Below are positions 9,636-32,739 of a stretch of DNA of 64,000 nt, one piece after another. The stretch lies in the NCBI RefSeq assembly GCF_024298765.1, contig NZ_CP101210.1. One strand, 5' to 3'. The notes under the pieces are model-generated. The model saw only the letters and a program-made list of their open reading frames with translations. It was not told where the DNA came from and made no database searches. Positions within the stretch are counted from its first letter, which is position 1; the number at the start of each line of letters is the position of its first letter. Made by a program: the position numbers and the translations under genes. This stretch comes from Escherichia coli (GTDB taxonomy: Bacteria; Pseudomonadota; Gammaproteobacteria; Enterobacterales; Enterobacteriaceae).

Positions 9636-12392
9636 TTACCCGAGAATTTTGCTGGCTTCGCGCGCTACATTATCCATCTCGTCCAACAGTTCCAGCAGTT
9701 CCGGCTCCAAATCTTCTTCTTTAGTACCGCTACGTAACTGTTGTTCGATCAGTTGGCAGAGATTCTTCATACGCGGCACACCGCTATAGCCGCAACTGCC
9801 ATGCAGTTTATGAATCAAATCAACCAGGCCTTCCGGGTTTTCTCCAACCAGCTGTTCCTCAACTTTGTTGCGAACTTCAGGCAGGAAATCGAGTAACATT
9901 TGCAGCATATCGCGCGCTAAATCGGTTTTTCCTGCTGCCTGGCGTAGTGCCAGTTGCCAGTCGAGGGTCGCATTCGGGTTCACCACAATTTCGTTGACTT
10001 CGGGCGTCACGACGCGAGAGGAAATACCGCTGCCAGGCTTGTAGCGCAACAACAAATTATGCAATCGCTCTTCTTCAATCGGTTTCGCCAGATAATCGCT
10101 CATCCCTGCGCCAAGCAGCTTCTCTTTTTGCCCGGCCATTGCATGCGCCGTTACCGCGATAACCGGCGTTTGTTGCTGATGGGGGAGCTGGTGGATGAGT
10201 TCGCAGGCCCGAATGCCGTCCATGTCCGGCATTTGAATATCCATTAAGATCAAATCGAACGGCATCTGTTTCGCCCGTTCAACCGCCTGATGCCCGCTAT
10301 CGCAAAGTTCCACATGTTGCACCATATCTTCCAGCAATGCGCCGATAAGTTTCAGGTTAGCGGGGTTGTCATCAACCGCCATGACTGTCATTGCCAGCTT
10401 ACTTTCATCGGTTACAGGCAAAAGCGTGTTTTGTTTGTGATGACAAAATTCCGTCAGGGCAGGCAACAGGCGCGTAGGTGTTAATGGTTTCAGCAGACAC
10501 GCGCCGATACCATCTTGCTTGAGTTTTTCAGCATTGACTTGTGCATGGCAAGGAAGTGCCAGCATCAGGAAATCGGTCATCGATACCGCTTTCGCTAATC
10601 GCTCATGTTGCATTGTTAGCGGCTCGCGGAAGGTCACCGCGATGCCTAACAACATCATGTCGTAATGCGCGGGAGGCAGCGCGGAGAACGTTGGGCTATA
10701 AACCACCTCCAGCGGCGTTTCACTTAAAATATCCAGCGTGCATTGCGCTGCTGCGGAGTTTGGTTCGACATAGGCCAGGCGCTTGCCGGCGAGGCACTGG
10801 GTGGATGGCCCTTCAATAATAATGTTCGGATTCAGATCGAGATTAATGTGGAACCAGAAAGTTGAACCGCGATTCGGCTGGCTATGAAACGAAATATCGC
10901 CGCCCATTTCATTAACCAGTTTTTGTGTAATCACCAGCCCCAGCCCGGTGCCACCATGACGGCGGGAAATACTGGCATCAGCCTGTCGGAAGGCCTGGAA
11001 TAAGCGCGATTGATCGCGTTCAGGAATACCAATGCCGGTATCCCGAATCTGCACTTCAATCTGCACTTTGGTATTACTCAGCGCACGTTTTTCTACCAGA
11101 ATATCAATGTTGCCATTCTCGGTGAATTTAATTGCATTCCCCACCAGGTTAGTGATGATTTGCTGTAATCGTAGTGGGTCGCCGATAACGTTATCAGGCA
11201 CGTCGCTTTTAATATTGAGCGTCAGTTCCAGTCCTTTATCGTGAGAAGAATGTGCCAGCAGGGTAACGACTTCATCCAGCGTGCTGCGTAGTGGGAATGG
11301 AATACTTTCCAGAATCAGCTTACCTGCTTCCAGTTTCGAGAAGTCGAGAACATCATTAATAATTGCCAGCAAATTATTTGCCGAACGTTCAATCGTATTC
11401 AGGTGATCGCGCTGCGTTGGTGTTAATTCTGTTTTCAGCGTCAGGCGGGTAAAGCCAATAACACCATTCAGTGGTGTACGCAGCTCGTGTGACATATTTG
11501 CCAGAAACTCGGATTTAATACGCGCCGCTTCCTGGGCGCGCTTTTTCGCCAGATCCAACTCAACGTTCTGAATTTCCATCTGCTCCAGCGTTTCACGCAG
11601 ATCGGACGTCGCCTGGTCGATATTGTGCTGCATCTCTTCGTGATAAGCAGCCAGCGACATTGCCATCGAGTTGATACCGTTTTTCAGCATATCCAGCTCG
11701 CCGAGCATAAATCCTTCCACCCGGCTGTCGAGTTGCCCGCGACGGATGCGGTCGACAGTATTCACCATGTTGCGAATCGGACCGGTTACATCGCGCATTA
11801 AGCGCCAGCCAAAAATAAGCGCAATACCGATACAAAACAGCATCATCACGCTGGAAATAAAGATCTCTTTATATTGCTGCAAGCGAACCGATTTAAGATC
11901 CAGCTCCAGCGCAATATATCCCAGCATATTTTGACTATTTTTGGCATCGCTACTGGGCGATTCGTCGGGGGAGTAACTTTCAGAAATAATCGGCGTGCGG
12001 AGGATCATTATATCGCCGTCACGAGTGACAGTGAGCTGGCGAGGAAACGGCACGTTGCTGCCGAGCTGCATTGATGAGGGATCAAGATGAAAATTGGAGG
12101 TGACAAAGAGTCGGTTATTTTCATCATAAACCGAAATCGCGCGAACAATATCGGAATGGCGACGATGCAGTACGCTTATTAACTGACCGATAGATTCGCG
12201 ATTTTGCAGGCTCATGCCATATTCAGTAGAAACTGCAAGCGGCTCAATAATGCTGGCTCCGGCATCTTCCAGTTGACGCTGCAAGTCGTTATAGCGATGC
12301 ACAACGAAAAAGATACTCAGCAATAAACCAATAAGGACGGTCGGTGCCAGGATCAGAATCATCATGCGTGCGCGCAGGCTGTAGTTGGTCAT
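9636..12392 (-). CDS. barA: Hybrid sensor histidine kinase BarA
   Basis: 918-aa ORF with HAMP, histidine kinase ([10 protein letters not shown]-box), receiver and HPt domains. Confidence 0.95.
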
Positions 12393-25066: not shown

Positions 25067-26344
25067 TTACTTGCTGCTAGCCATTGCGGGGGCGCTATCA
25101 GCAGTACGAATTTTTTGGAACAGCAAAAAGGTAAAGATGATCACCATGGCAAGCGCCGCCATACCCATTAGCCACATGTTGCGGTAGGCTTCTGCAGCGG
25201 GCAGGGTGTCTTGCCAGTAGCCGATAATCGGGTAAACGAAGACATCCGGCAGGAATCCAATCACCGAACAAATACCTACCGTGGTGCCCATAATGTAAGA
25301 CGGTGTTCTCGCTTCGCCAGGGCAGGCCCAGTACAGCCCGCGTGAGGCGTAACAGGTGAATCCCAGCAGTAAAATCAGGCCAATCCCCATCGCGACCGAT
25401 TGCGGGTTAGAGTTCGTGACGAGCAGGGCAGTTAACGCCAGCAAGCCGAGTACGGAAAGGATTTGGATCACGCGGGTAGGGGATTTCACTTTGCTGTAGG
25501 TGGTGATAATGCCACCAAGTGGGCCGCACAGTGCGCGGAAGATTTTGTTGATCACAATCCCCATGTAGCTCGCCGCCACCAGCGACATGCCGTACATTTC
25601 GGTCAGATAGTTGGTGGAGTAACTCAGAATGGCGTAGATAGTGAAGACACCAAAAATCACCATGCTGCAATACCAGGTGGTACTGATACGCAAAACGGCC
25701 AGGATATCGCTAAGCTGGAATGACTGTTTTTCTTCGTTATTGGTACTGCGCAGGTTGTTGTTATCGCTAACAAAAAACCAGCACAGAATCCCCAACAAGA
25801 TGTAAACCACACTGTAGATAATAATGACTGTTTTCAGGCTGGCGCTGTCATCCGGCGCAAAGCGAGAAAAGACCCACATGGTAAACACCGCCAGCGACAT
25901 TACACCGACGCCGCGCAGCCCTTCCATCCAGCCCATAATTTTCCCTTGCTCACTATGATCGCCCAGCAATGAGGCGGCTTTAATCGACACCGACCACAGC
26001 ATTAAAATCGTCGTTATCGCAAAGGCGACCTGAATACAGAGCATTACCCACAGCGGTGGATACGTTGCCATTAACAGACCCAGTAATCCGGTAATGATCA
26101 TCGCGGAAGTAATCATTTTGCGGTGTGAAAATTTATCGGCAATAACGCCGCTGGGGGCATAAAGAATAATAGCTGCAATACCAAAGGTACTCATTATTAA
26201 ACCTATCTCGGTATTGCTGAATCCCATAAATTTCGCCATGGGAATTTGATAAATATAACGTAAATAAGCCAGGTCGAAACTAACGCCGCCGCTAAAACTA
26301 ATTATCGCGAGGGTTATCCAACGGCGATATGAGTTGTGTTGCAT
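25067..26344 (-). CDS. yqcE: MFS transporter
   Basis: 425-aa hydrophobic ORF immediately upstream of ygcE on the same strand (27-bp gap); likely an operon. Confidence 0.85.
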   Translation of the reverse strand: MQHNSYRRWITLAIISFSGGVSFDLAYLRYIYQIPMAKFMGFSNTEIGLIMSTFGIAAIILYAPSGVIADKFSHRKMITSAMIITGLLGLLMATYPPLWVMLCIQVAFAITTILMLWSVSIKAASLLGDHSEQGKIMGWMEGLRGVGVMSLAVFTMWVFSRFAPDDSASLKTVIIIYSVVYILLGILCWFFVSDNNNLRSTNNEEKQSFQLSDILAVLRISTTWYCSMVIFGVFTIYAILSYSTNYLTEMYGMSLVAASYMGIVINKIFRALCGPLGGIITTYSKVKSPTRVIQILSVLGLLALTALLVTNSNPQSVAMGIGLILLLGFTCYASRGLYWACPGEARTPSYIMGTTVGICSVIGFLPDVFVYPIIGYWQDTLPAAEAYRNMWLMGMAALAMVIIFTFLLFQKIRTADSAPAMASSK

Positions 26345-26465
26345 ATCGTATTCCCATTTGTAATAGACAAAAAAAAGAGAAAAGTAAGCCGCCCTTTCAG
26401 GTGGATTACTTTTCTCAGGTCTCTAGTAATTGCAATAAGAAATAACATGGAAAGCAGAGGTGTTG

Positions 26466-26481
26466 TGTGAGAGTAATCACG
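26466..26481. promoter_or_regulatory. Near-consensus CRP site (TGTGA-N6-TCACg) in the yqcE/ygcW divergent promoter region
   Basis: TGTGAGAGTAATCACG read directly. Confidence 0.45.
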
Positions 26482-26522
26482 CTTCTGCTTTTTAAAATTA
26501 TTTGACAATTCGAATATCACAC

Positions 26523-26538
26523 TGTGATTACGATCACA
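26523..26538. promoter_or_regulatory. Perfect-consensus CRP site (TGTGA-N6-TCACA) in the yqcE/ygcW divergent promoter region
   Basis: TGTGATTACGATCACA read directly; overlaps a second palindrome TCACACTGTGA. A TTGACA hexamer lies at 26502-26507. Confidence 0.6.
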
Positions 26539-26592
26539 TTAGCGATTATGCCCTTATGCTAAAAATTATCTCCAGTTACCAGAGATAATGAG

Positions 26593-26638
26593 AAAGGTAA
26601 CTTCCCTCTCGCGGGGGAAGTTACCTTTCTTTTTTTTT
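26593..26638 (+). terminator. Intrinsic-terminator-like hairpin in the ygcW 5' leader (candidate attenuator)
   Basis: 14-bp perfect stem (AAAGGTAACTTCCC / GGGAAGTTACCTTT), 8-nt loop, then a 9-T run at 26630-26638; ends 25 nt before the ygcW ATG. Confidence 0.6.
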
Positions 26639-26662
26639 GCCTTACGGAAATTGGAGCTAACT

Positions 26663-27448
26663 ATGTCAATCGAATCTCTCAATGCGTTCTCAATGGATTT
26701 TTTCTCCCTGAAAGGTAAAACCGCAATTGTTACCGGCGGGAATAGCGGTTTAGGCCAGGCATTTGCCATGGCGCTGGCCAAAGCAGGCGCAAATATCTTT
26801 ATTCCAAGCTTCGTTAAAGATAACGGCGAAACAAAGGAAATGATTGAAAAACAGGGTGTTGAAGTGGACTTCATGCAGGTGGATATCACCGCAGAAGGCG
26901 CACCGCAGAAGATTATCGCTGCCTGCTGTGAGCGCTTCGGTACCGTCGATATTCTGGTTAACAATGCCGGTATTTGTAAACTGAATAAGGTGCTGGACTT
27001 CGGTCGTGCCGACTGGGACCCGATGATTGACGTGAACCTGACCGCCGCATTCGAGTTAAGCTACGAAGCAGCAAAAATTATGATCCCGCAGAAAAGCGGT
27101 AAAATCATTAATATCTGTTCATTGTTCTCTTACTTAGGTGGACAATGGTCACCTGCATATTCTGCCACTAAACATGCTCTTGCCGGGTTCACCAAAGCTT
27201 ATTGTGATGAACTAGGTCAATATAATATTCAGGTAAATGGTATTGCCCCTGGCTATTATGCAACAGATATTACGCTGGCGACACGCAGTAATCCAGAAAC
27301 CAATCAGCGCGTTCTTGATCATATTCCGGCAAACCGTTGGGGCGATACTCAGGATTTAATGGGCGCAGCCGTGTTTCTCGCAAGTCAGGCATCGAATTAT
27401 GTCAACGGGCATTTATTAGTGGTCGATGGCGGTTATTTAGTGCGCTAA
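26663..27448 (+). CDS. ygcW: Short-chain dehydrogenase/reductase (SDR)
   Basis: Track ORF 26588-27448 trimmed to the ATG at 26663 (MSIESLN, 261 aa) with SD GGAG; TGGNSGLG Rossmann motif. Confidence 0.85.
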   Translation: MSIESLNAFSMDFFSLKGKTAIVTGGNSGLGQAFAMALAKAGANIFIPSFVKDNGETKEMIEKQGVEVDFMQVDITAEGAPQKIIAACCERFGTVDILVNNAGICKLNKVLDFGRADWDPMIDVNLTAAFELSYEAAKIMIPQKSGKIINICSLFSYLGGQWSPAYSATKHALAGFTKAYCDELGQYNIQVNGIAPGYYATDITLATRSNPETNQRVLDHIPANRWGDTQDLMGAAVFLASQASNYVNGHLLVVDGGYLVR

Positions 27449-27517
27449 TCCATAACGGTGGTTTCTGTTTTCTCTTATTAATGATTATTCCATTTTTATT
27501 ATCAGGAAGGAATTACT

Positions 27518-28972
27518 ATGTCTTTATCTCGCGCAGCGATTGTCGACCAGCTAAAGGAAATTGTTGGTGCAGATCGCGTAATTACCGATGAAACGGTATT
27601 AAAGAAAAACAGTATTGACCGTTTTCGTAAATTTCCGGATATTCATGGAATTTATACTTTGCCGATTCCGGCAGCGGTCGTAAAACTCGGTTCTACAGAA
27701 CAAGTATCCCGTGTGCTGAATTTTATGAATGCGCACAAAATTAACGGTGTGCCACGTACCGGTGCTTCCGCCACCGAAGGTGGGCTGGAAACCGTTGTGG
27801 AAAACTCGGTGGTGCTCGACGGCTCCGCCATGAATCAAATCATTAATATTGATATTGAGAATATGCAGGCCACGGCGCAATGTGGCGTTCCGCTGGAGGT
27901 GCTGGAAAACGCGTTGCGTGAAAAAGGTTACACCACGGGGCATTCTCCGCAGTCAAAGCCGCTGGCGCAGATGGGCGGCCTGGTGGCGACCCGCAGTATC
28001 GGGCAGTTTTCCACACTCTACGGCGCAATCGAGGATATGGTCGTTGGTCTGGAAGCGGTGCTGGCAGATGGCACCGTCACACGCATTAAAAACGTGCCAC
28101 GTCGCGCGGCTGGCCCGGACATTCGTCATATCATCATTGGCAACGAAGGTGCACTGTGCTATATCACTGAAGTCACAGTGAAAATCTTCAAATTTACGCC
28201 GGAAAACAATCTCTTCTATGGCTATGTGCTGGAAGACATGAAAACCGGCTTCAACATCCTGCGTGAAATCATGGTGGAAGGGTATCGTCCGTCGATCGCT
28301 CGTTTGTATGACGCTGAAGATGGCACCCAACACTTCACCCATTTTGCCGATGGTAAATGTGTGCTGATCTTTATGGCTGAAGGTAACCCTCGCATTGCGA
28401 AGGCGACAGGCGAAGGGATTGCTGAAATCGTGGCACGTTACCCGCAATGCCAGCGAGTGGACAGCAAGCTGATCGAAACCTGGTTTAATCACCTGAACTG
28501 GGGGCCGGATAAAGTGGCCGCTGAACGTGTGCAGATCCTCAAAACCGGCAACATGGGCTTTACCACCGAAGTGTCCGGCTGCTGGAGCTGCATCCACGAA
28601 ATCTACGAAAGCGTTATTAACCGTATTCGTACCGAGTTCCCGCATGCCGACGACATCACCATGCTGGGCGGTCACTCCTCTCATAGCTATCAGAACGGCA
28701 CCAACATGTACTTCGTCTACGACTACAACGTCGTTGACTGTAAGCCGGAAGAGGAAATCGACAAGTACCACAATCCGCTCAACAAAATCATCTGCGAAGA
28801 AACCATTCGCCTCGGTGGTTCGATGGTGCACCACCACGGTATCGGTAAACATCGCGTTCACTGGAGCAAACTGGAACACGGCAGCGCGTGGGCGTTGCTG
28901 GAAGGGCTGAAAAAGCAGTTCGATCCTAACGGCATTATGAATACGGGTACTATCTATCCGATTGAAAAATAA
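27518..28972 (+). CDS. ygcU: FAD-linked oxidase (PCMH-type FAD-binding; alkyl-DHAP synthase / D-lactate dehydrogenase-like)
   Basis: 484-aa ORF. Confidence 0.85.
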   Translation: MSLSRAAIVDQLKEIVGADRVITDETVLKKNSIDRFRKFPDIHGIYTLPIPAAVVKLGSTEQVSRVLNFMNAHKINGVPRTGASATEGGLETVVENSVVLDGSAMNQIINIDIENMQATAQCGVPLEVLENALREKGYTTGHSPQSKPLAQMGGLVATRSIGQFSTLYGAIEDMVVGLEAVLADGTVTRIKNVPRRAAGPDIRHIIIGNEGALCYITEVTVKIFKFTPENNLFYGYVLEDMKTGFNILREIMVEGYRPSIARLYDAEDGTQHFTHFADGKCVLIFMAEGNPRIAKATGEGIAEIVARYPQCQRVDSKLIETWFNHLNWGPDKVAAERVQILKTGNMGFTTEVSGCWSCIHEIYESVINRIRTEFPHADDITMLGGHSSHSYQNGTNMYFVYDYNVVDCKPEEEIDKYHNPLNKIICEETIRLGGSMVHHHGIGKHRVHWSKLEHGSAWALLEGLKKQFDPNGIMNTGTIYPIEK

Positions 28973-29013
28973 TGTGTCAGGCAGCGTTCCGCGATGACGG
29001 GGCGTTGCCTTTT

Positions 29014-29043
29014 CGGCTTCTCAGGCGAGAAGCCGTTCTTATT
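29014..29043 (+). terminator. Terminator-like hairpin between ygcU and ygcS (possible internal attenuator)
   Basis: CGGCTTCTC-AGGC-GAGAAGCCG (9-bp stem) followed by TTCTTATT; 22 nt upstream of the ygcS ATG. Confidence 0.45.
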
Positions 29044-29065
29044 ACCGGACAATGAAGGGGTAAAG

Positions 29066-30403
29066 ATGAACACTTCACCGGTGCGAATGGATGATTTACC
29101 ACTTAACCGTTTTCACTGCCGCATTGCTGCGCTCACTTTCGGCGCACACCTGACCGACGGTTATGTCCTCGGCGTCATTGGTTACGCCATTATTCAGCTT
29201 ACACCCGCCATGCAACTGACGCCGTTTATGGCGGGAATGATCGGCGGCTCGGCGCTACTTGGCCTGTTTATCGGTAGCCTGGTTTTGGGGTGGATCTCCG
29301 ACCATATTGGTCGGCAAAAAATCTTCACCTTCAGCTTTTTGCTGATTACGCTCGCTTCGTTCTTACAATTTTTTGCCACCACGCCAGAGCATCTTATTGG
29401 ACTGCGCATTTTGATCGGCATTGGTCTGGGAGGCGATTACTCAGTCGGTCACACTTTGCTGGCTGAATTTTCTCCGCGCCGCCATCGCGGTGTTTTGCTG
29501 GGCGCATTCAGCGTGGTGTGGACCGTAGGCTATGTGCTGGCAAGTATTGCCGGACATCACTTTATTAGCGAAAGCCCGGAGGCCTGGCGCTGGCTACTGG
29601 CATCGGCAGCTCTGCCCGCATTGTTGATTACGTTATTACGCTGGGGAACGCCAGAATCGCCACGCTGGCTACTGCGCCAGGGGCGTTTTGCAGAAGCTCA
29701 CGCTATCGTGCATCGCTATTTTGGTCCCCATGTTTTACTGGGCGATGAAGTGGCAACGGCGACCCATAAACACATCAAAACCTTGTTCTCTTCGCGCTAC
29801 TGGCGGCGCACAGCGTTTAACAGCGTCTTCTTTGTCTGCCTCGTAATCCCATGGTTTGTGATTTATACCTGGCTGCCGACCATCGCCCAAACTATTGGTC
29901 TGGAAGATGCGCTGACAGCCAGCCTGATGCTTAATGCGTTGTTAATTGTGGGCGCGCTGCTGGGATTAGTTCTGACGCACCTGCTGGCACATCGCAAATT
30001 TTTGCTGGGAAGTTTTTTGCTGCTGGCGGCAACGCTGGTCGTGATGGCCTGTTTGCCTTCCGGCAGTTCATTAACGCTGCTGCTTTTTGTTCTCTTCAGC
30101 ACCACCATTTCGGCAGTCAGTAATCTGGTGGGCATTTTGCCTGCGGAAAGTTTTCCTACTGACATTCGCTCGCTGGGCGTCGGTTTTGCCACCGCCATGA
30201 GTCGACTTGGCGCGGCGGTAAGTACTGGCCTGCTGCCGTGGGTGCTGGCGCAGTGGGGAATGCAAGTCACCTTATTGCTCCTGGCGGCAGTGTTGTTGGT
30301 TGGTTTTGTTGTGACCTGGCTATGGGCACCAGAAACCAAAGCACTCCCGCTGGTGGCGGCGGGAAATGTAGGAGGTGCGAATGAACATTCTGTTAGCGTT
30401 TAA
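29066..30403 (+). CDS. ygcS: MFS transporter
   Basis: Track ORF 28994-30403 trimmed to the ATG at 29066 (MNTSPVRMDD, 445 aa) with SD GAAGGGG. Confidence 0.85.
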   Translation: MNTSPVRMDDLPLNRFHCRIAALTFGAHLTDGYVLGVIGYAIIQLTPAMQLTPFMAGMIGGSALLGLFIGSLVLGWISDHIGRQKIFTFSFLLITLASFLQFFATTPEHLIGLRILIGIGLGGDYSVGHTLLAEFSPRRHRGVLLGAFSVVWTVGYVLASIAGHHFISESPEAWRWLLASAALPALLITLLRWGTPESPRWLLRQGRFAEAHAIVHRYFGPHVLLGDEVATATHKHIKTLFSSRYWRRTAFNSVFFVCLVIPWFVIYTWLPTIAQTIGLEDALTASLMLNALLIVGALLGLVLTHLLAHRKFLLGSFLLLAATLVVMACLPSGSSLTLLLFVLFSTTISAVSNLVGILPAESFPTDIRSLGVGFATAMSRLGAAVSTGLLPWVLAQWGMQVTLLLLAAVLLVGFVVTWLWAPETKALPLVAAGNVGGANEHSVSV

Positions 30404-31160
30404 AGCCGAACCGGATGCCGGAATGCTGGCGGAAAAAGAGTGGCAGGCGGCGGCTCAGGGTAATAGCGGACCGGATGTTTCGCTTCTGCGAAGTTTACTC
30501 GGTGCTGATGAACAGGCTGCCGCCGCGCTGCTGTTGGCGCAGAGAAAAAACGGTACGTCGATGTCTTTAACCGCGTTGAGCATGGGGGATGAACGGGCGT
30601 TGCACTGGCTGCGCTATCTCATGGCTCTTGGGTTTGAGGAAGCTGTAGTGCTGGAGACGGCGGCAGATCTGCGCTTTGCGTCGGAATTTGTCGCTCGCCA
30701 TATTGCCGAATGGCAGCGTCAGAATCCGCTGGATCTGATAATTACCGGCTGCCAAAGCAGCGAAGGGCAGAATGGACAAACGCCATTTTTGCTGGCGGAA
30801 ATGCTGGGCTGGCCCTGTTTCACCCAGGTGGAGCGTTTCACTCTCGACGCGCCGTTTATCACCCTCGAACAGCGTACTGAACATGGGTTGCGCTGTTGCC
30901 GGGTTCGCTTGCCTGCGGTGATTGCCGTGCGCCAGTGTGGTGAAGTGGCCTTGCCAGTACCGGGAATGCGCCAGCGAATGGCTGCGGGGAAAGCAGAAAT
31001 TATCCGTAAAACTGTTGCTGCCGAATTGCCAGCGATGCAGTGTCTGCAACTGGCAAGAGCAGAGCAACGACGCGGAGCGACGCTGATTGATGGGCAAACG
31101 GTAGCAGAAAAAGCGCAAAAGCTATGGCAGAACTATTTACGCCAAAGGATGCAGCCATGA
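30381..31160 (+). CDS. ygcR: Electron transfer flavoprotein beta-subunit-like protein
   Basis: Start at ATG 30381 with SD AGGAGG 6 nt upstream (259 aa); overlaps the ygcS 3' end. Confidence 0.82.
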   Translation: MNILLAFKAEPDAGMLAEKEWQAAAQGNSGPDVSLLRSLLGADEQAAAALLLAQRKNGTSMSLTALSMGDERALHWLRYLMALGFEEAVVLETAADLRFASEFVARHIAEWQRQNPLDLIITGCQSSEGQNGQTPFLLAEMLGWPCFTQVERFTLDAPFITLEQRTEHGLRCCRVRLPAVIAVRQCGEVALPVPGMRQRMAAGKAEIIRKTVAAELPAMQCLQLARAEQRRGATLIDGQTVAEKAQKLWQNYLRQRMQP

Positions 31161-32017
31161 ATATCACAATTGTGACAATAAATCAGGAGAATGCCGCAAT
31201 AGCAAGCTGGCTGGCGGCACAGGATTTCAGCGGTTGTACCCTGGCGCACTGGCAGATTGAACCTCAGCCCGTAGTGGCGGAACAGGTGCTGGATGCGCTG
31301 GTGGAACAGTGGCAGCGAACGCCAGCGGACGTTGTTCTCTTTCCGCCGGGAACGTTTGGCGATGAACTGTCGACCCGGCTGGCCTGGCGTTTACATGGTG
31401 CAAGCATCTGCCAGGTGACTTCGTTAGATATTCCAACTGTAAGCATGCGCAAATCCCACTGGGGAAATGCGCTAACGGCGACGCTGCAAACAGAAAAACG
31501 CCCGCTATGCCTTTCCCTTGCCCGCCAGGCGGGAGCACTGAAAAACGCCACGTTGCCCTCTGGTATGCAGCAACTGAACATTGTCCCCGGCGCGCCTCCA
31601 GACTGGCTTATCAGCGTCGAAAACCTGAAAAATGTTACCCGCGATCCATTAGCTGAAGCCAGACGGGTGCTGGTGGTGGGGCAGGGCGGAGAGGCAGATA
31701 ACCAGGAAATCGCTATGCTGGTAGAAAAGCTGGGAGCCGAAGTGGGCTACAGTCGGGCGCGAGTGATGAACGGTGGCGTTGATGCTGAAAAAGTGATTGG
31801 TATTTCCGGACATCTGCTGGCGCCTGAGGTGTGTATTGTTGTTGGCGCTTCCGGCGCAGCAGCGTTAATGGCGGGCGTACGCAATAGCAAGTTTGTGGTG
31901 GCGATTAATCATGACGCCAGCGCGGCGGTATTTTCACAGGCAGATGTTGGCGTGGTTGATGACTGGAAAGCGGTGCTGGAGGCACTGGTGACAACCATTC
32001 ACGCAGATTGCCAATAA
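31157..32017 (+). CDS. ygcQ: Electron transfer flavoprotein alpha-subunit-like protein
   Basis: Track ORF 31124-32017 trimmed to the internal ATG at 31157 (MNITIVT, 286 aa); overlaps the ygcR stop. Confidence 0.82.
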   Translation: MNITIVTINQENAAIASWLAAQDFSGCTLAHWQIEPQPVVAEQVLDALVEQWQRTPADVVLFPPGTFGDELSTRLAWRLHGASICQVTSLDIPTVSMRKSHWGNALTATLQTEKRPLCLSLARQAGALKNATLPSGMQQLNIVPGAPPDWLISVENLKNVTRDPLAEARRVLVVGQGGEADNQEIAMLVEKLGAEVGYSRARVMNGGVDAEKVIGISGHLLAPEVCIVVGASGAAALMAGVRNSKFVVAINHDASAAVFSQADVGVVDDWKAVLEALVTTIHADCQ

Positions 32018-32163: not shown

Positions 32164-32739
32164 TCAAAGCAATTTTTTCGCTAACGTCCAGACCCCGGTA
32201 TTCGTGGTGGAAAGCGCCACAACACCCGCGTTAATCGCATTACGCGCATCTTCTTCATCGCACACCAGCCCGCCGGCAATCAGCGGTTGGCGGATTTTCT
32301 CCGTCACCCAGCCCAGCACTTTAGGCATACAGCCTGGCAGGATCTCAATACAATCCGGATTCGATTGCGCAACTTGCTTATCAATGTTGTGAAACGAAAT
32401 CGAATCAACAATAAACAGGCGATGAATACAGAAAAAACCTTCCGCTCTTGCCGCTTTCAACATTGAGGCTTTGGTACTGATAATGCCGTCCGCCTCAGTC
32501 ACCAGTTTCAAAAACTGAATCACCACTTCTTTATTTGACGCGCCTTCCAGCAAATCAACATGAATAAAAGCATATTTTCCGGCATTTTTAATCTTTTTAA
32601 CGATTTGACTAATGGTGCAGATATTGCCGTACAACACGGAAATAAACTGGCATTCAGAGTCGATTGCCAGTTGCAGGCTGGCATTATCTTTAACGGCAGC
32701 AATCACCGGATTCTGGCGGAGCAGGTGTAAGAGGGGCAT
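32164..32739 (-). CDS. ygcP: GlpP-family (glycerol-3-phosphate responsive) antiterminator-like protein
   Basis: 191-aa ORF. Confidence 0.82.
   Translation of the reverse strand: MPLLHLLRQNPVIAAVKDNASLQLAIDSECQFISVLYGNICTISQIVKKIKNAGKYAFIHVDLLEGASNKEVVIQFLKLVTEADGIISTKASMLKAARAEGFFCIHRLFIVDSISFHNIDKQVAQSNPDCIEILPGCMPKVLGWVTEKIRQPLIAGGLVCDEEDARNAINAGVVALSTTNTGVWTLAKKLL

Follow-up and report, generated by a model that had tools for sequence, protein, structure and literature searches.

Putative twin CRP-activated, YgcP-relieved attenuators in the leaders of the divergent ygcW and yqcE operons of Escherichia coli

The ygc region of Escherichia coli contains a 318-base pair (bp) spacer (positions 26345-26662 of the window, the 64-kb stretch of DNA analyzed here), which separates the minus strand genes yqcE-ygcE from the plus strand genes ygcW-ygcU-ygcS-ygcR-ygcQ. 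These divergent operons are probably guarded by twin attenuators, which would be activated by CRP and relieved by YgcP, a GlpP-family protein encoded in the same cluster. Each leader carries an intrinsic terminator that is used in cells, and just upstream an RNA segment able to form an alternative hairpin (P1) with the lower 5' arm of that terminator; the pairing covaries across species, and the whole element accompanies genes of the GlpP family. The binding of YgcP to the leader RNA, the nature of the inducer and the positions of the transcript starts are predictions. The first-pass annotation of this DNA had proposed YgcP-relieved leader termination for ygcWUSRQ, which is supported by published Term-seq data, covariation, the linkage to GlpP-family genes and the layout of the Bacillus subtilis glp leaders; its scope of a single operon proved too narrow, since yqcE-ygcE forms a second arm.

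Leader terminators and the alternative hairpin

The plus strand reads GAGAAAGGTAACTTCCCTC-TCGC-GGGGGAAGTTACCTTTCTT followed by T's at 26590-26638, and RNAfold folds 26590-26631 into a 19-bp stem (16 Watson-Crick pairs, two G.U pairs and the closing pair) of -31 kcal/mol. Shuffled versions of the sequence average -11.3 +/- 2.4 kcal/mol (z = -8.1), and 0 of 200 fold as well. The run of nine T's (T9) occupies 26630-26638 and ends 24 nucleotides (nt) upstream of the ygcW ATG at 26663. In a terminator scan this hairpin was the top plus strand match, with eight terminator-like sites in 2 kb compared with 2.2 expected. The 14-bp stem, 8-nt loop and run of nine T's at 26593-26638 described in the first-pass annotation are a correct and conservative reading of the same structure. 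Because the upstream gene yqcE (25067-26344, minus strand) is divergent, the hairpin lies in a leader and does not mark the 3' end of a plus strand gene, as that annotation had also argued. The ygcW hairpin is therefore a real intrinsic leader terminator.

A second, paralogous element, absent from the first-pass annotation, lies on the minus strand in the yqcE leader (26366-26441). Read from 26441 to 26366, this copy (E) is CAATTACTAGAGACCTGAGAAAAGTAATCC...GGCTTACTTTTCTC-T8, and it contains the same parts in the same order as the ygcW copy (W), directly before yqcE. Its intrinsic terminator (26369-26416, minus strand) consists of an interrupted stem at 26416-26377, with 16 pairs of which 11 are contiguous, and of a T8 run at 26376-26369 that gives U8 in the RNA; it folds at -21.6 kcal/mol. 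When the window was searched with a covariance model (R1) built from 92 distinct element copies, two full-length matches and no others emerged, scoring 84.4 bits and, for the E copy, 81.1 bits; there was no third element before ygcN at E <= 1. A blastn search in 'distant' mode with the E copy as query missed even the W copy and is uninformative on further copies elsewhere in E. coli genomes.

Both terminators are used in vivo. Term-seq of strain MG1655, grown in lysogeny broth (LB) to an optical density of 0.4, recorded two 'orphan' 3' ends in the spacer, for which no regulatory element was noted (Adams et al. 2021, PMC7815308). The first, MG1655 2900311(-), corresponds to window position 26625, 38 nt before the ygcW ATG, and has 40,640 reads, a Rho score of 0.50 ('No') and an intrinsic terminator score of 15.8, while the second, MG1655 2900556(+), corresponds to 26380, 36 nt before the yqcE ATG, with 1,557 reads, a Rho score of 0.61 ('No') and an intrinsic terminator score of 11.4; the Rho scores compare cultures with and without bicyclomycin (PMC7815308). 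As the 3' ends in both leaders are Rho-independent, both terminators are functional in vivo, and the short RNA from the ygcW leader reaches high levels. Leader termination accounts for two 3' ends that had so far been left unannotated.

For comparison, 65 loci encoding a YgcP relative were fetched and the ygc genes were mapped on each. Both copies are present in every one of the 50 Enterobacterales loci in which ygcW and yqcE are divergent. The element is about 65 nt long. Starting at its 5' end, it consists of a segment u (AGUUACY), GAG after 1-4 nt and GAGAAA after another 3-6 nt; next come a segment d (RGUAACU), the upper part of the stem with its loop, the 3' arm and U7-9. Of these, GAGAAA and d belong to the terminator as its lower 5' arm. 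Since u is nearly identical to the matching stretch of the terminator 3' arm, it can pair with d instead; the resulting hairpin, P1, and the lower terminator stem exclude each other. P1 is formed by the first 30-35 nt, pairs AGUUACY with RGUAACU and closes a loop of 14-19 nt that holds both GAG boxes. These boxes, GAG and GAGAAA, are invariant in 92/92 aligned copies, beyond what pairing alone would need.

The W copy places the P1 5' strand (AGUUACC) at 26574-26580 on the plus strand, complementary to the 3' strand (GGUAACU) at 26596-26602, and the intervening loop (26581-26595) holds the two invariant boxes, GAGA at 26582-26585 and GAGAAA at 26590-26595. Since 26596-26602 is common to P1 and to the terminator 5' arm, the two folds are mutually exclusive. 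P1 of the E copy spans 26404-26431 on the minus strand, where AAUUACU (26431-26425) pairs with AGUAAUC (26410-26404) around the loop boxes GAGA (26423-26420) and GAGAAA (26416-26411), and it is matched by a model of P1 (R2) with 42.2 bits (E = 5.6e-8).

MAFFT and model R2 mis-register the copies with a 3-nt longer linker (GTTACTGAAAGAG), therefore P1 was counted both on a regex-anchored table of 91 copies and on a clean alignment without those copies (69 distinct copies). In the regex-anchored register the pair u2:d6 is G-C in 66 copies and A-U in 25, with no mismatch, u7:d1 is C-G in 23, U-A in 64 and C.A in 4, u5:d3 is A-U in 90 and G-C in one, and u3:d5 and u4:d4 vary only from U-A to U.G. 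The clean alignment has 94.2% of the P1 cells paired, and three of the seven pairs change on both sides (43 cells). Its covariation score of 0.316 compares with 0.194 +/- 0.010 for shuffled alignments, none of which reaches it (0/500), and with at most 0.133 for slid controls. The terminator helix itself is 98.2% paired across the 92 copies.

The compensatory changes extend from the single genome to other phyla. The two E. coli copies differ by complementary changes, AGUUACC/GGUAACU in W compared with AUUACU/AGUAAU in E, and the U at d6 of the yqcE copy is paired in P1 and mismatched in the terminator, which indicates that the constraint acts on P1 itself. Elsewhere, P1 takes the form of AGUUGCU/AGCGACU in Listeria and Bacillus, AAUUACU/AGUAAUU in Sporomusa, GGCGCU/AGCG(AA)CC in Fodinisporobacter and GUUUC/GAAAC in Faecalibacterium. 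Judged by this pattern of compensatory change, selection maintains P1 as a helix that competes with the terminator for one common strand.

The computed folding energies set the two structures clearly apart. P1 alone amounts to -6.1 kcal/mol in W and -1.4 kcal/mol in E, and the best folds with P1 enforced reach -15.6 and -6.5 kcal/mol, respectively, compared with -33.8 and -21.6 kcal/mol for the terminator folds. Because the terminator folds are far more stable, termination would be the default, and P1 would require a stabilizing factor.

Two further observations concern these leaders. A longer open reading frame for ygcW (286 amino acids, 26588-27448, plus strand), which would start at an ATG at 26588 and run through the hairpin, was considered and rejected: this ATG lies inside the GAGAAA box region, it is missing from most other copies of the element (CCTGAGAAA, GAAGAGAAA) and the RefSeq start is at 26663. 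The in-frame, non-conserved ATG is thus a trap for gene callers. In Limnobaculum eriocheiris (L032:13872-13965) the spacer between ygcW and yqcE is reduced to about 130 nt, and the elements are apparently fused into one palindrome, which is flanked by A9 and T9 and leaves no room for promoters or CRP sites; the sequence suggests that the inverted copies have rearranged with each other.

Predicted CRP-dependent promoters and the layout of the cluster

Two CRP sites are found in the spacer, and their spacing relative to the elements is fixed. Site 1, the perfect TGTGATTACGATCACA (26523-26538, centre 26530.5), is assigned to the ygcW promoter, and site 2, TGTGAGAGTAATCACG (minus strand CGTGATTACTCTCACA; 26466-26481, centre 26473.5), to the yqcE promoter, at 42.5 nt from the E element. 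On the ygcW side the CRP centre lies 43.5 +/- 1 nt before u in 48 of 49 copies, and on the yqcE side the nearest centre lies 41.5-43.5 nt before u, in both cases across genera. This constant spacing, put at 42.5-44.5 nt for both sides together, implies that each CRP site serves one of the two divergent promoters. The first-pass annotation was right that two CRP sites precede ygcW, and wrong in counting both towards ygcW. Site 1 was a top computational prediction in 2007 (PMC1794230), is bound in vivo according to chromatin immunoprecipitation sequencing in enterotoxigenic E. coli (PMC4287617), and is bound in vitro with a Kd of about 1.7 nM (PMC12871828).

Between the CRP site and the element, TGnTA is conserved at a constant distance in all Enterobacterales loci. 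In E. coli the predicted extended -10 elements are TGcTAAAAA for ygcW (26557-26565, plus strand), with a predicted start at about 26572 in class II geometry (-41.5), and TGtTATTTC for yqcE (26439-26447, minus strand), with a predicted start at about 26432. Both promoters are therefore likely class II CRP promoters with an extended -10, whose predicted starts lie 1-2 nt before u. With a start about 2 nt before the element, the terminated RNA would be about 55-67 nt long. In Firmicutes, a sigma-A-type -35/-10 pair precedes the element at the same short distance.

The TTGACA hexamer upstream of the W hairpin, which the first-pass annotation had named, is indeed present (26503-26508). It is disfavored as the -35 of ygcW, as it is not conserved outside Escherichia and the corresponding -10 would fall inside the CRP site; a promoter at this position would lengthen the leader by about 35 nt and leave the attenuator mechanism unchanged. 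Genomic-SELEX (systematic evolution of ligands by exponential enrichment) showed that the spacer is bound in vitro by RpoD holoenzyme and by H-NS (PMC3946193), and silencing by H-NS may be a further, third level at which the ygcW-yqcE spacer is controlled.

The putatively controlled operons extend over 26663-32017 on the plus strand (ygcW-ygcU-ygcS-ygcR-ygcQ) and over 23562-26344 on the minus strand (yqcE-ygcE), and ygcP, ygcO and ygcN follow beyond ygcQ on the minus strand. The ygc products include a short-chain dehydrogenase/reductase (SDR), a flavin adenine dinucleotide (FAD) oxidase, an FGGY kinase, electron-transfer flavoprotein (ETF) proteins and major facilitator superfamily (MFS) transporters, and no enzyme of the cluster reaches an NCBIfam equivalog cut-off. 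The cluster contains neither glp genes nor a gene for a DNA-binding regulator. Of 5,426 complete E. coli genomes, 5,066 contain the spacer at 95-100% identity, and it carries no RNA feature annotation.

The divergence of the cluster between E. coli and Citrobacter (L007-L013) is uneven, as YgcP and YgcW share 96-97% identity and YgcU 93%, compared with about 62% for YgcQ, about 72% for YgcR and about 75% for YgcN and YgcO. These values suggest either that the history of the cluster is mosaic or that the ETF module is constrained differently. Further away, between queE and ygcE, the window contains an array of clustered regularly interspaced short palindromic repeats (CRISPR) at 22408-22926, with nine 29-nt repeats (GTTCCCCGCGCCAGCGGGGATAAACCG type) at 61-nt spacing, followed by three degenerate repeats at 23380-23518. 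A K-12-like record annotates CRISPR at the same place, and Tandem Repeats Finder (TRF) missed the array.

YgcP and the GlpP family

The only regulator-like gene of the cluster is ygcP (32164-32739, minus strand), which is present in all ygc loci examined and is the proposed antiterminator. YgcP matches the Pfam family G3P_antiterm (PF04309) over its full length (E = 1.6e-62) and shares 28% identity with B. subtilis GlpP over 185 residues without gaps, which bears out the homology claimed in the first-pass annotation. Its relatives in the PDB, 3KTS and 1VKF, are apo structures only.

The element is found well beyond the Enterobacterales, and it co-occurs with GlpP-family genes in both Proteobacteria and Firmicutes. 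Ygc-type clusters that carry it in a leader next to a GlpP-family gene occur in Vibrio, Listeria, Bacillus, Thalassobacillus, Clostridium, Sporomusa and Fodinisporobacter, where the gene directly after the element encodes an SDR, a kinase, an oxidase or a transporter. In Lachnoclostridium and Faecalibacterium the element precedes glycerol-3-phosphate oxidase-like genes that adjoin glpP. An RNA-first scan of metagenome contigs with the element pattern returned ten stretches, of which two are copies of one chance match without a hairpin. The other eight are true elements; each lies in a ygc cluster, and ygcP is present in 7/7 where the DNA reaches far enough. By this distribution across genomes, the element follows GlpP-family genes and not any particular target gene.

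In Vibrio hannami, Clostridium sediminicola, Sporomusa and Fodinisporobacter (L068-L071), the SDR, the FAD oxidase, the FGGY kinase and YgcP are kept, and the transporter is swapped for an MFS, a BCCT (betaine/choline/carnitine transporter family) or an OpuA-type ABC (ATP-binding cassette) system with an OpuAC binding protein. From these swaps, the substrate may be choline- or betaine-like or otherwise unusual, and not a plain sugar alcohol. In addition, a glpP-glpK-glpA-like locus of Anaerococcus (L066:9880-9990, 12080-12170) has GAGA-rich stretches before terminator-like hairpins (GGGAGAAGAGCGAGC..., AAGAGAGAGACAGAGCC...), which precede glpP-glpK and a glycerol-3-phosphate oxidase-like gene. 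These stretches are unscored by model R1 and may represent the same motif in a more diverged form.

The closest known system is the glycerol-3-phosphate-dependent antitermination by GlpP in B. subtilis, which acts on the glpD, glpFK and glpTQ leaders. The glpD and glpFK leaders need GlpP, as Glatz et al. 1996 are quoted in two later papers (PMC9604022, PMC10573289). For comparison, B. subtilis GlpP was represented by database protein P0141 and its contig (a 16.6-kb locus). Its glpD leader reads ...GGUCC-UGAGAUGAGGAGA-GACCACAGC...GCUGUUGUGGUCUC-U5 and its glpFK leader ...UGUGAU-GGAGAACUCGGAG-ACCACAGC...GUUGUGGU-U7. Both contain an upstream complement of the terminator 5' arm (GGUC/GACC in glpD, UGUG/CACA in glpFK), followed by two GAG(A) boxes 4-6 nt apart and then by the 5' arm, with the boxes just 5' of the arm or overlapping it.

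The ygc system shares with B. subtilis GlpP a PF04309 regulator, an intrinsic terminator right after the promoter in the leader of a catabolic operon, and several leaders per regulator. On the other hand, it operates in a Gram-negative host on ygc and not glp targets, has two divergent copies in one spacer, and would rely for catabolite control on class II CRP promoters instead of CcpA. The stems differ as well, being GUUAC/GUAAC in the ygc element and of the CCACAGC type in B. subtilis. With its ygc targets and its lack of glp genes, the ygc system is a paralogous subfamily and not the orthologue of GlpP.

Similar regulatory logic is known from other antiterminators. BglG, SacY and LicT are sugar-responsive proteins of the E. 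coli bgl and the B. subtilis sac and lic operons, of which bgl is likewise CRP-dependent, and they stabilize, via the ribonucleic antiterminator (RAT), a weak 5' leader hairpin that overlaps the terminator 5' arm, which is the role proposed here for YgcP. In contrast to the small PF04309 domain of YgcP, they possess a CAT RNA-binding domain and PRD domains regulated by the phosphotransferase system (PTS); the RAT differs in sequence and structure, and PTS phosphorylation takes the place of what is presumably a small-molecule ligand for YgcP. The spaced GAG boxes also recall the recognition of spaced purine-rich triplets by HutP, which belongs to an unrelated protein family, reads two sets of three NAG repeats compared with two hairpin-loop boxes here and, to our knowledge, has not been described as stabilizing an alternative hairpin. 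HutP of the B. subtilis hut operon is activated by its ligand and recognizes its spaced NAG repeats upstream of and within the leader terminator (PMC2425495).

Proposed mechanism, competing explanations and significance

According to the proposed mechanism, CRP-cyclic AMP (CRP-cAMP) would initiate transcription at both divergent promoters, and a copy of the element would follow within a few nt. By default the nascent leader would fold into the terminator, and the polymerase would stop before the first gene and leave an RNA of about 55-67 nt. YgcP loaded with inducer would bind the GAG boxes together with P1, keep P1 closed and block the lower terminator stem, upon which the polymerase could read into ygcWUSRQ and yqcE-ygcE. 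Such a circuit would represent an AND gate, in which initiation requires CRP-cAMP and elongation requires YgcP together with its inducer. By analogy with GlpK, GlpP and glycerol-3-phosphate, the best guess is that the inducer is probably the phosphorylated product of the FGGY kinase YgcE; it is probably not glycerol-3-phosphate itself, given that glp genes are absent from the cluster and that its enzymes fall below the equivalog cut-offs.

Several observations weigh against this circuit or narrow its support. The Cappable-seq and SMRT-Cappable-seq supplements have no entry for transcript starts in the spacer, and the pattern-based hexamers proposed along with the genomic-SELEX data are TTGACA-16-TGTGAT for ygcW and TTCTCA-18-GATAAT for yqcE (PMC3946193). 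The 3' ends at 26625 (plus strand) and 26380 (minus strand) lie 4-5 nt before the T-runs, within the 3' arm (...GGGGGAAGUUACC, ...GGCGGCUUACUUUU), and a textbook terminator would release its transcript elsewhere. Exonuclease trimming back to the G+C-rich upper stem may, as a guess, explain these ends; alternatively, the lower 5' arm may be held in P1 or by protein. Many of the covarying P1 cells are inherited, so that the 43 cells stand for about 5-8 independent compensatory events. Furthermore, the linkage between the element and ygcP within the Enterobacterales is partly mere synteny, and Serratia microhaemolytica has a YgcP-like gene (L043:7431-8000, 70% identity) with no element and no ygc genes within 18 kb, which, judged by its surroundings, is an orphan copy of the regulator. 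Model R1 ranks the B. subtilis glpD and glpFK leaders first and second in their 16.6-kb locus with weak scores (16.5 bits, E = 0.07 and 9.7 bits, E = 1.7, respectively); RNA homology across the whole GlpP family is therefore suggested and not established. Finally, the searchable literature yielded no experiments on YgcP.

Of the explanations that dispense with YgcP as the switch, a riboswitch survives best, and even this one is improbable. P1 and its GAG-box loop would then constitute a small metabolite aptamer with no need for a protein. With riboswitch attenuators the 5' leaders share terminator and antiterminator folds that exclude each other, the default off state, the conserved unpaired loop, the covarying stem and the position before catabolic and transport operons. 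It would have to be a new class, since an Rfam 15 scan of 25800-27200 (E <= 10) returned only noise, with top scores of at most 26 bits compared with gathering thresholds of 90-100, from unrelated families. However, the candidate aptamer is a single helix of about 30 nt, which is too small for the sensing part, and a dedicated protein gene is always alongside: every instance found adjoins a GlpP-family gene, with ygc-type and glycerol-type targets alike. The GAG boxes are common to glycerol-type and ygc-type loci, though their inducers should differ, and B. subtilis leaders of the same layout need the GlpP protein (again Glatz et al. 1996, at second hand through PMC9604022 and PMC10573289).

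Termination in LB without a known inducer, together with terminator folds far more stable than the P1 folds, could also mean that the hairpins merely damp or insulate two strong CRP promoters and do not switch at all. This explanation, to which a lower probability is given than to the riboswitch, leaves the covarying u segment, the invariant GAG boxes and the tie to an antiterminator-family gene unexplained.

The possibility that promoter and terminator together make a trans-acting small RNA (sRNA), with the control of ygcW being secondary, is rated lower again. The terminated ygcW leader is certainly abundant in LB, as its 40,640 Term-seq reads attest, and its end, a stem with a U-tail, resembles those of Hfq-binding sRNAs; PMC8175672, consulted on the question of Hfq, has no entry for this leader. 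Nevertheless, the two paralogous copies face two operons, the same element stands directly before operons in Firmicutes, and P1, the GAG boxes and the terminator fully account for the conserved parts. The CRP-dependent sRNA of about 120 nt that the first-pass annotation had offered as an alternative fits poorly with a predicted terminated RNA of about 55-67 nt, and a trans role has gained no positive support, although the terminated leader may have a secondary role in trans or as a sponge.

The least probable reading, in which GTTAC...GTAAC is an inverted repeat read as DNA by a repressor just downstream of the start, draws on the typical operator position of the repeat (about +3 to +31), but it conflicts with the complementary differences of both half-sites between two copies in one genome (AGTTACC/GGTAACT compared with ATTACT/AGTAAT), which fit RNA pairing and not a single protein reading both sites, with the tolerated T-A to T-G changes, which keep RNA pairing and not DNA symmetry, and with the absence of a DNA-binding regulator gene from the cluster.

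To conclude, the proposed antitermination by YgcP belongs to a kind already known from GlpP in B. subtilis. What is new is its occurrence in E. coli and other Proteobacteria with the anatomy described here, the pairing of two divergent copies under CRP, and a candidate motif by which proteins of the GlpP family may recognize RNA. No such motif is defined in Rfam or in searchable papers, the PDB holds no protein-RNA structure of this family, and no functional papers on ygc genes, YgcP, ygc regulation, PF04309 or a GlpP RNA motif were found in the searchable literature. More tentatively, and at a confidence that stays somewhat below even, the two leaders may be founding members of a widespread, previously undescribed RNA family, the cognate antiterminator hairpin of the whole GlpP/PF04309 family from the Bacillus glp to the enterobacterial ygc genes. 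This family would be recognized by a short covarying stem with two spaced GAG boxes in the loop and with a 3' strand that begins the terminator. The leaders would then exemplify catabolic antitermination by a non-Bgl family, perhaps with an unusual substrate as the transporter swaps hint, and the leader RNA could also sequester YgcP or have a function in trans.

A portable part of this kind already exists in the B. subtilis GlpP/PglpD pair (PMC9604022), and a compact pair of terminator and antiterminator functional in E. coli would be of similar use. Although no bacterium has been studied more closely than E. coli K-12, its ten-gene ygc cluster, the regulator and the inducer have remained uncharacterized. 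With the leaders described here, the vague annotation 'glycerol-3-phosphate responsive antiterminator' would turn into a concrete circuit of two CRP promoters, two attenuators and a 30-35-nt RNA target.

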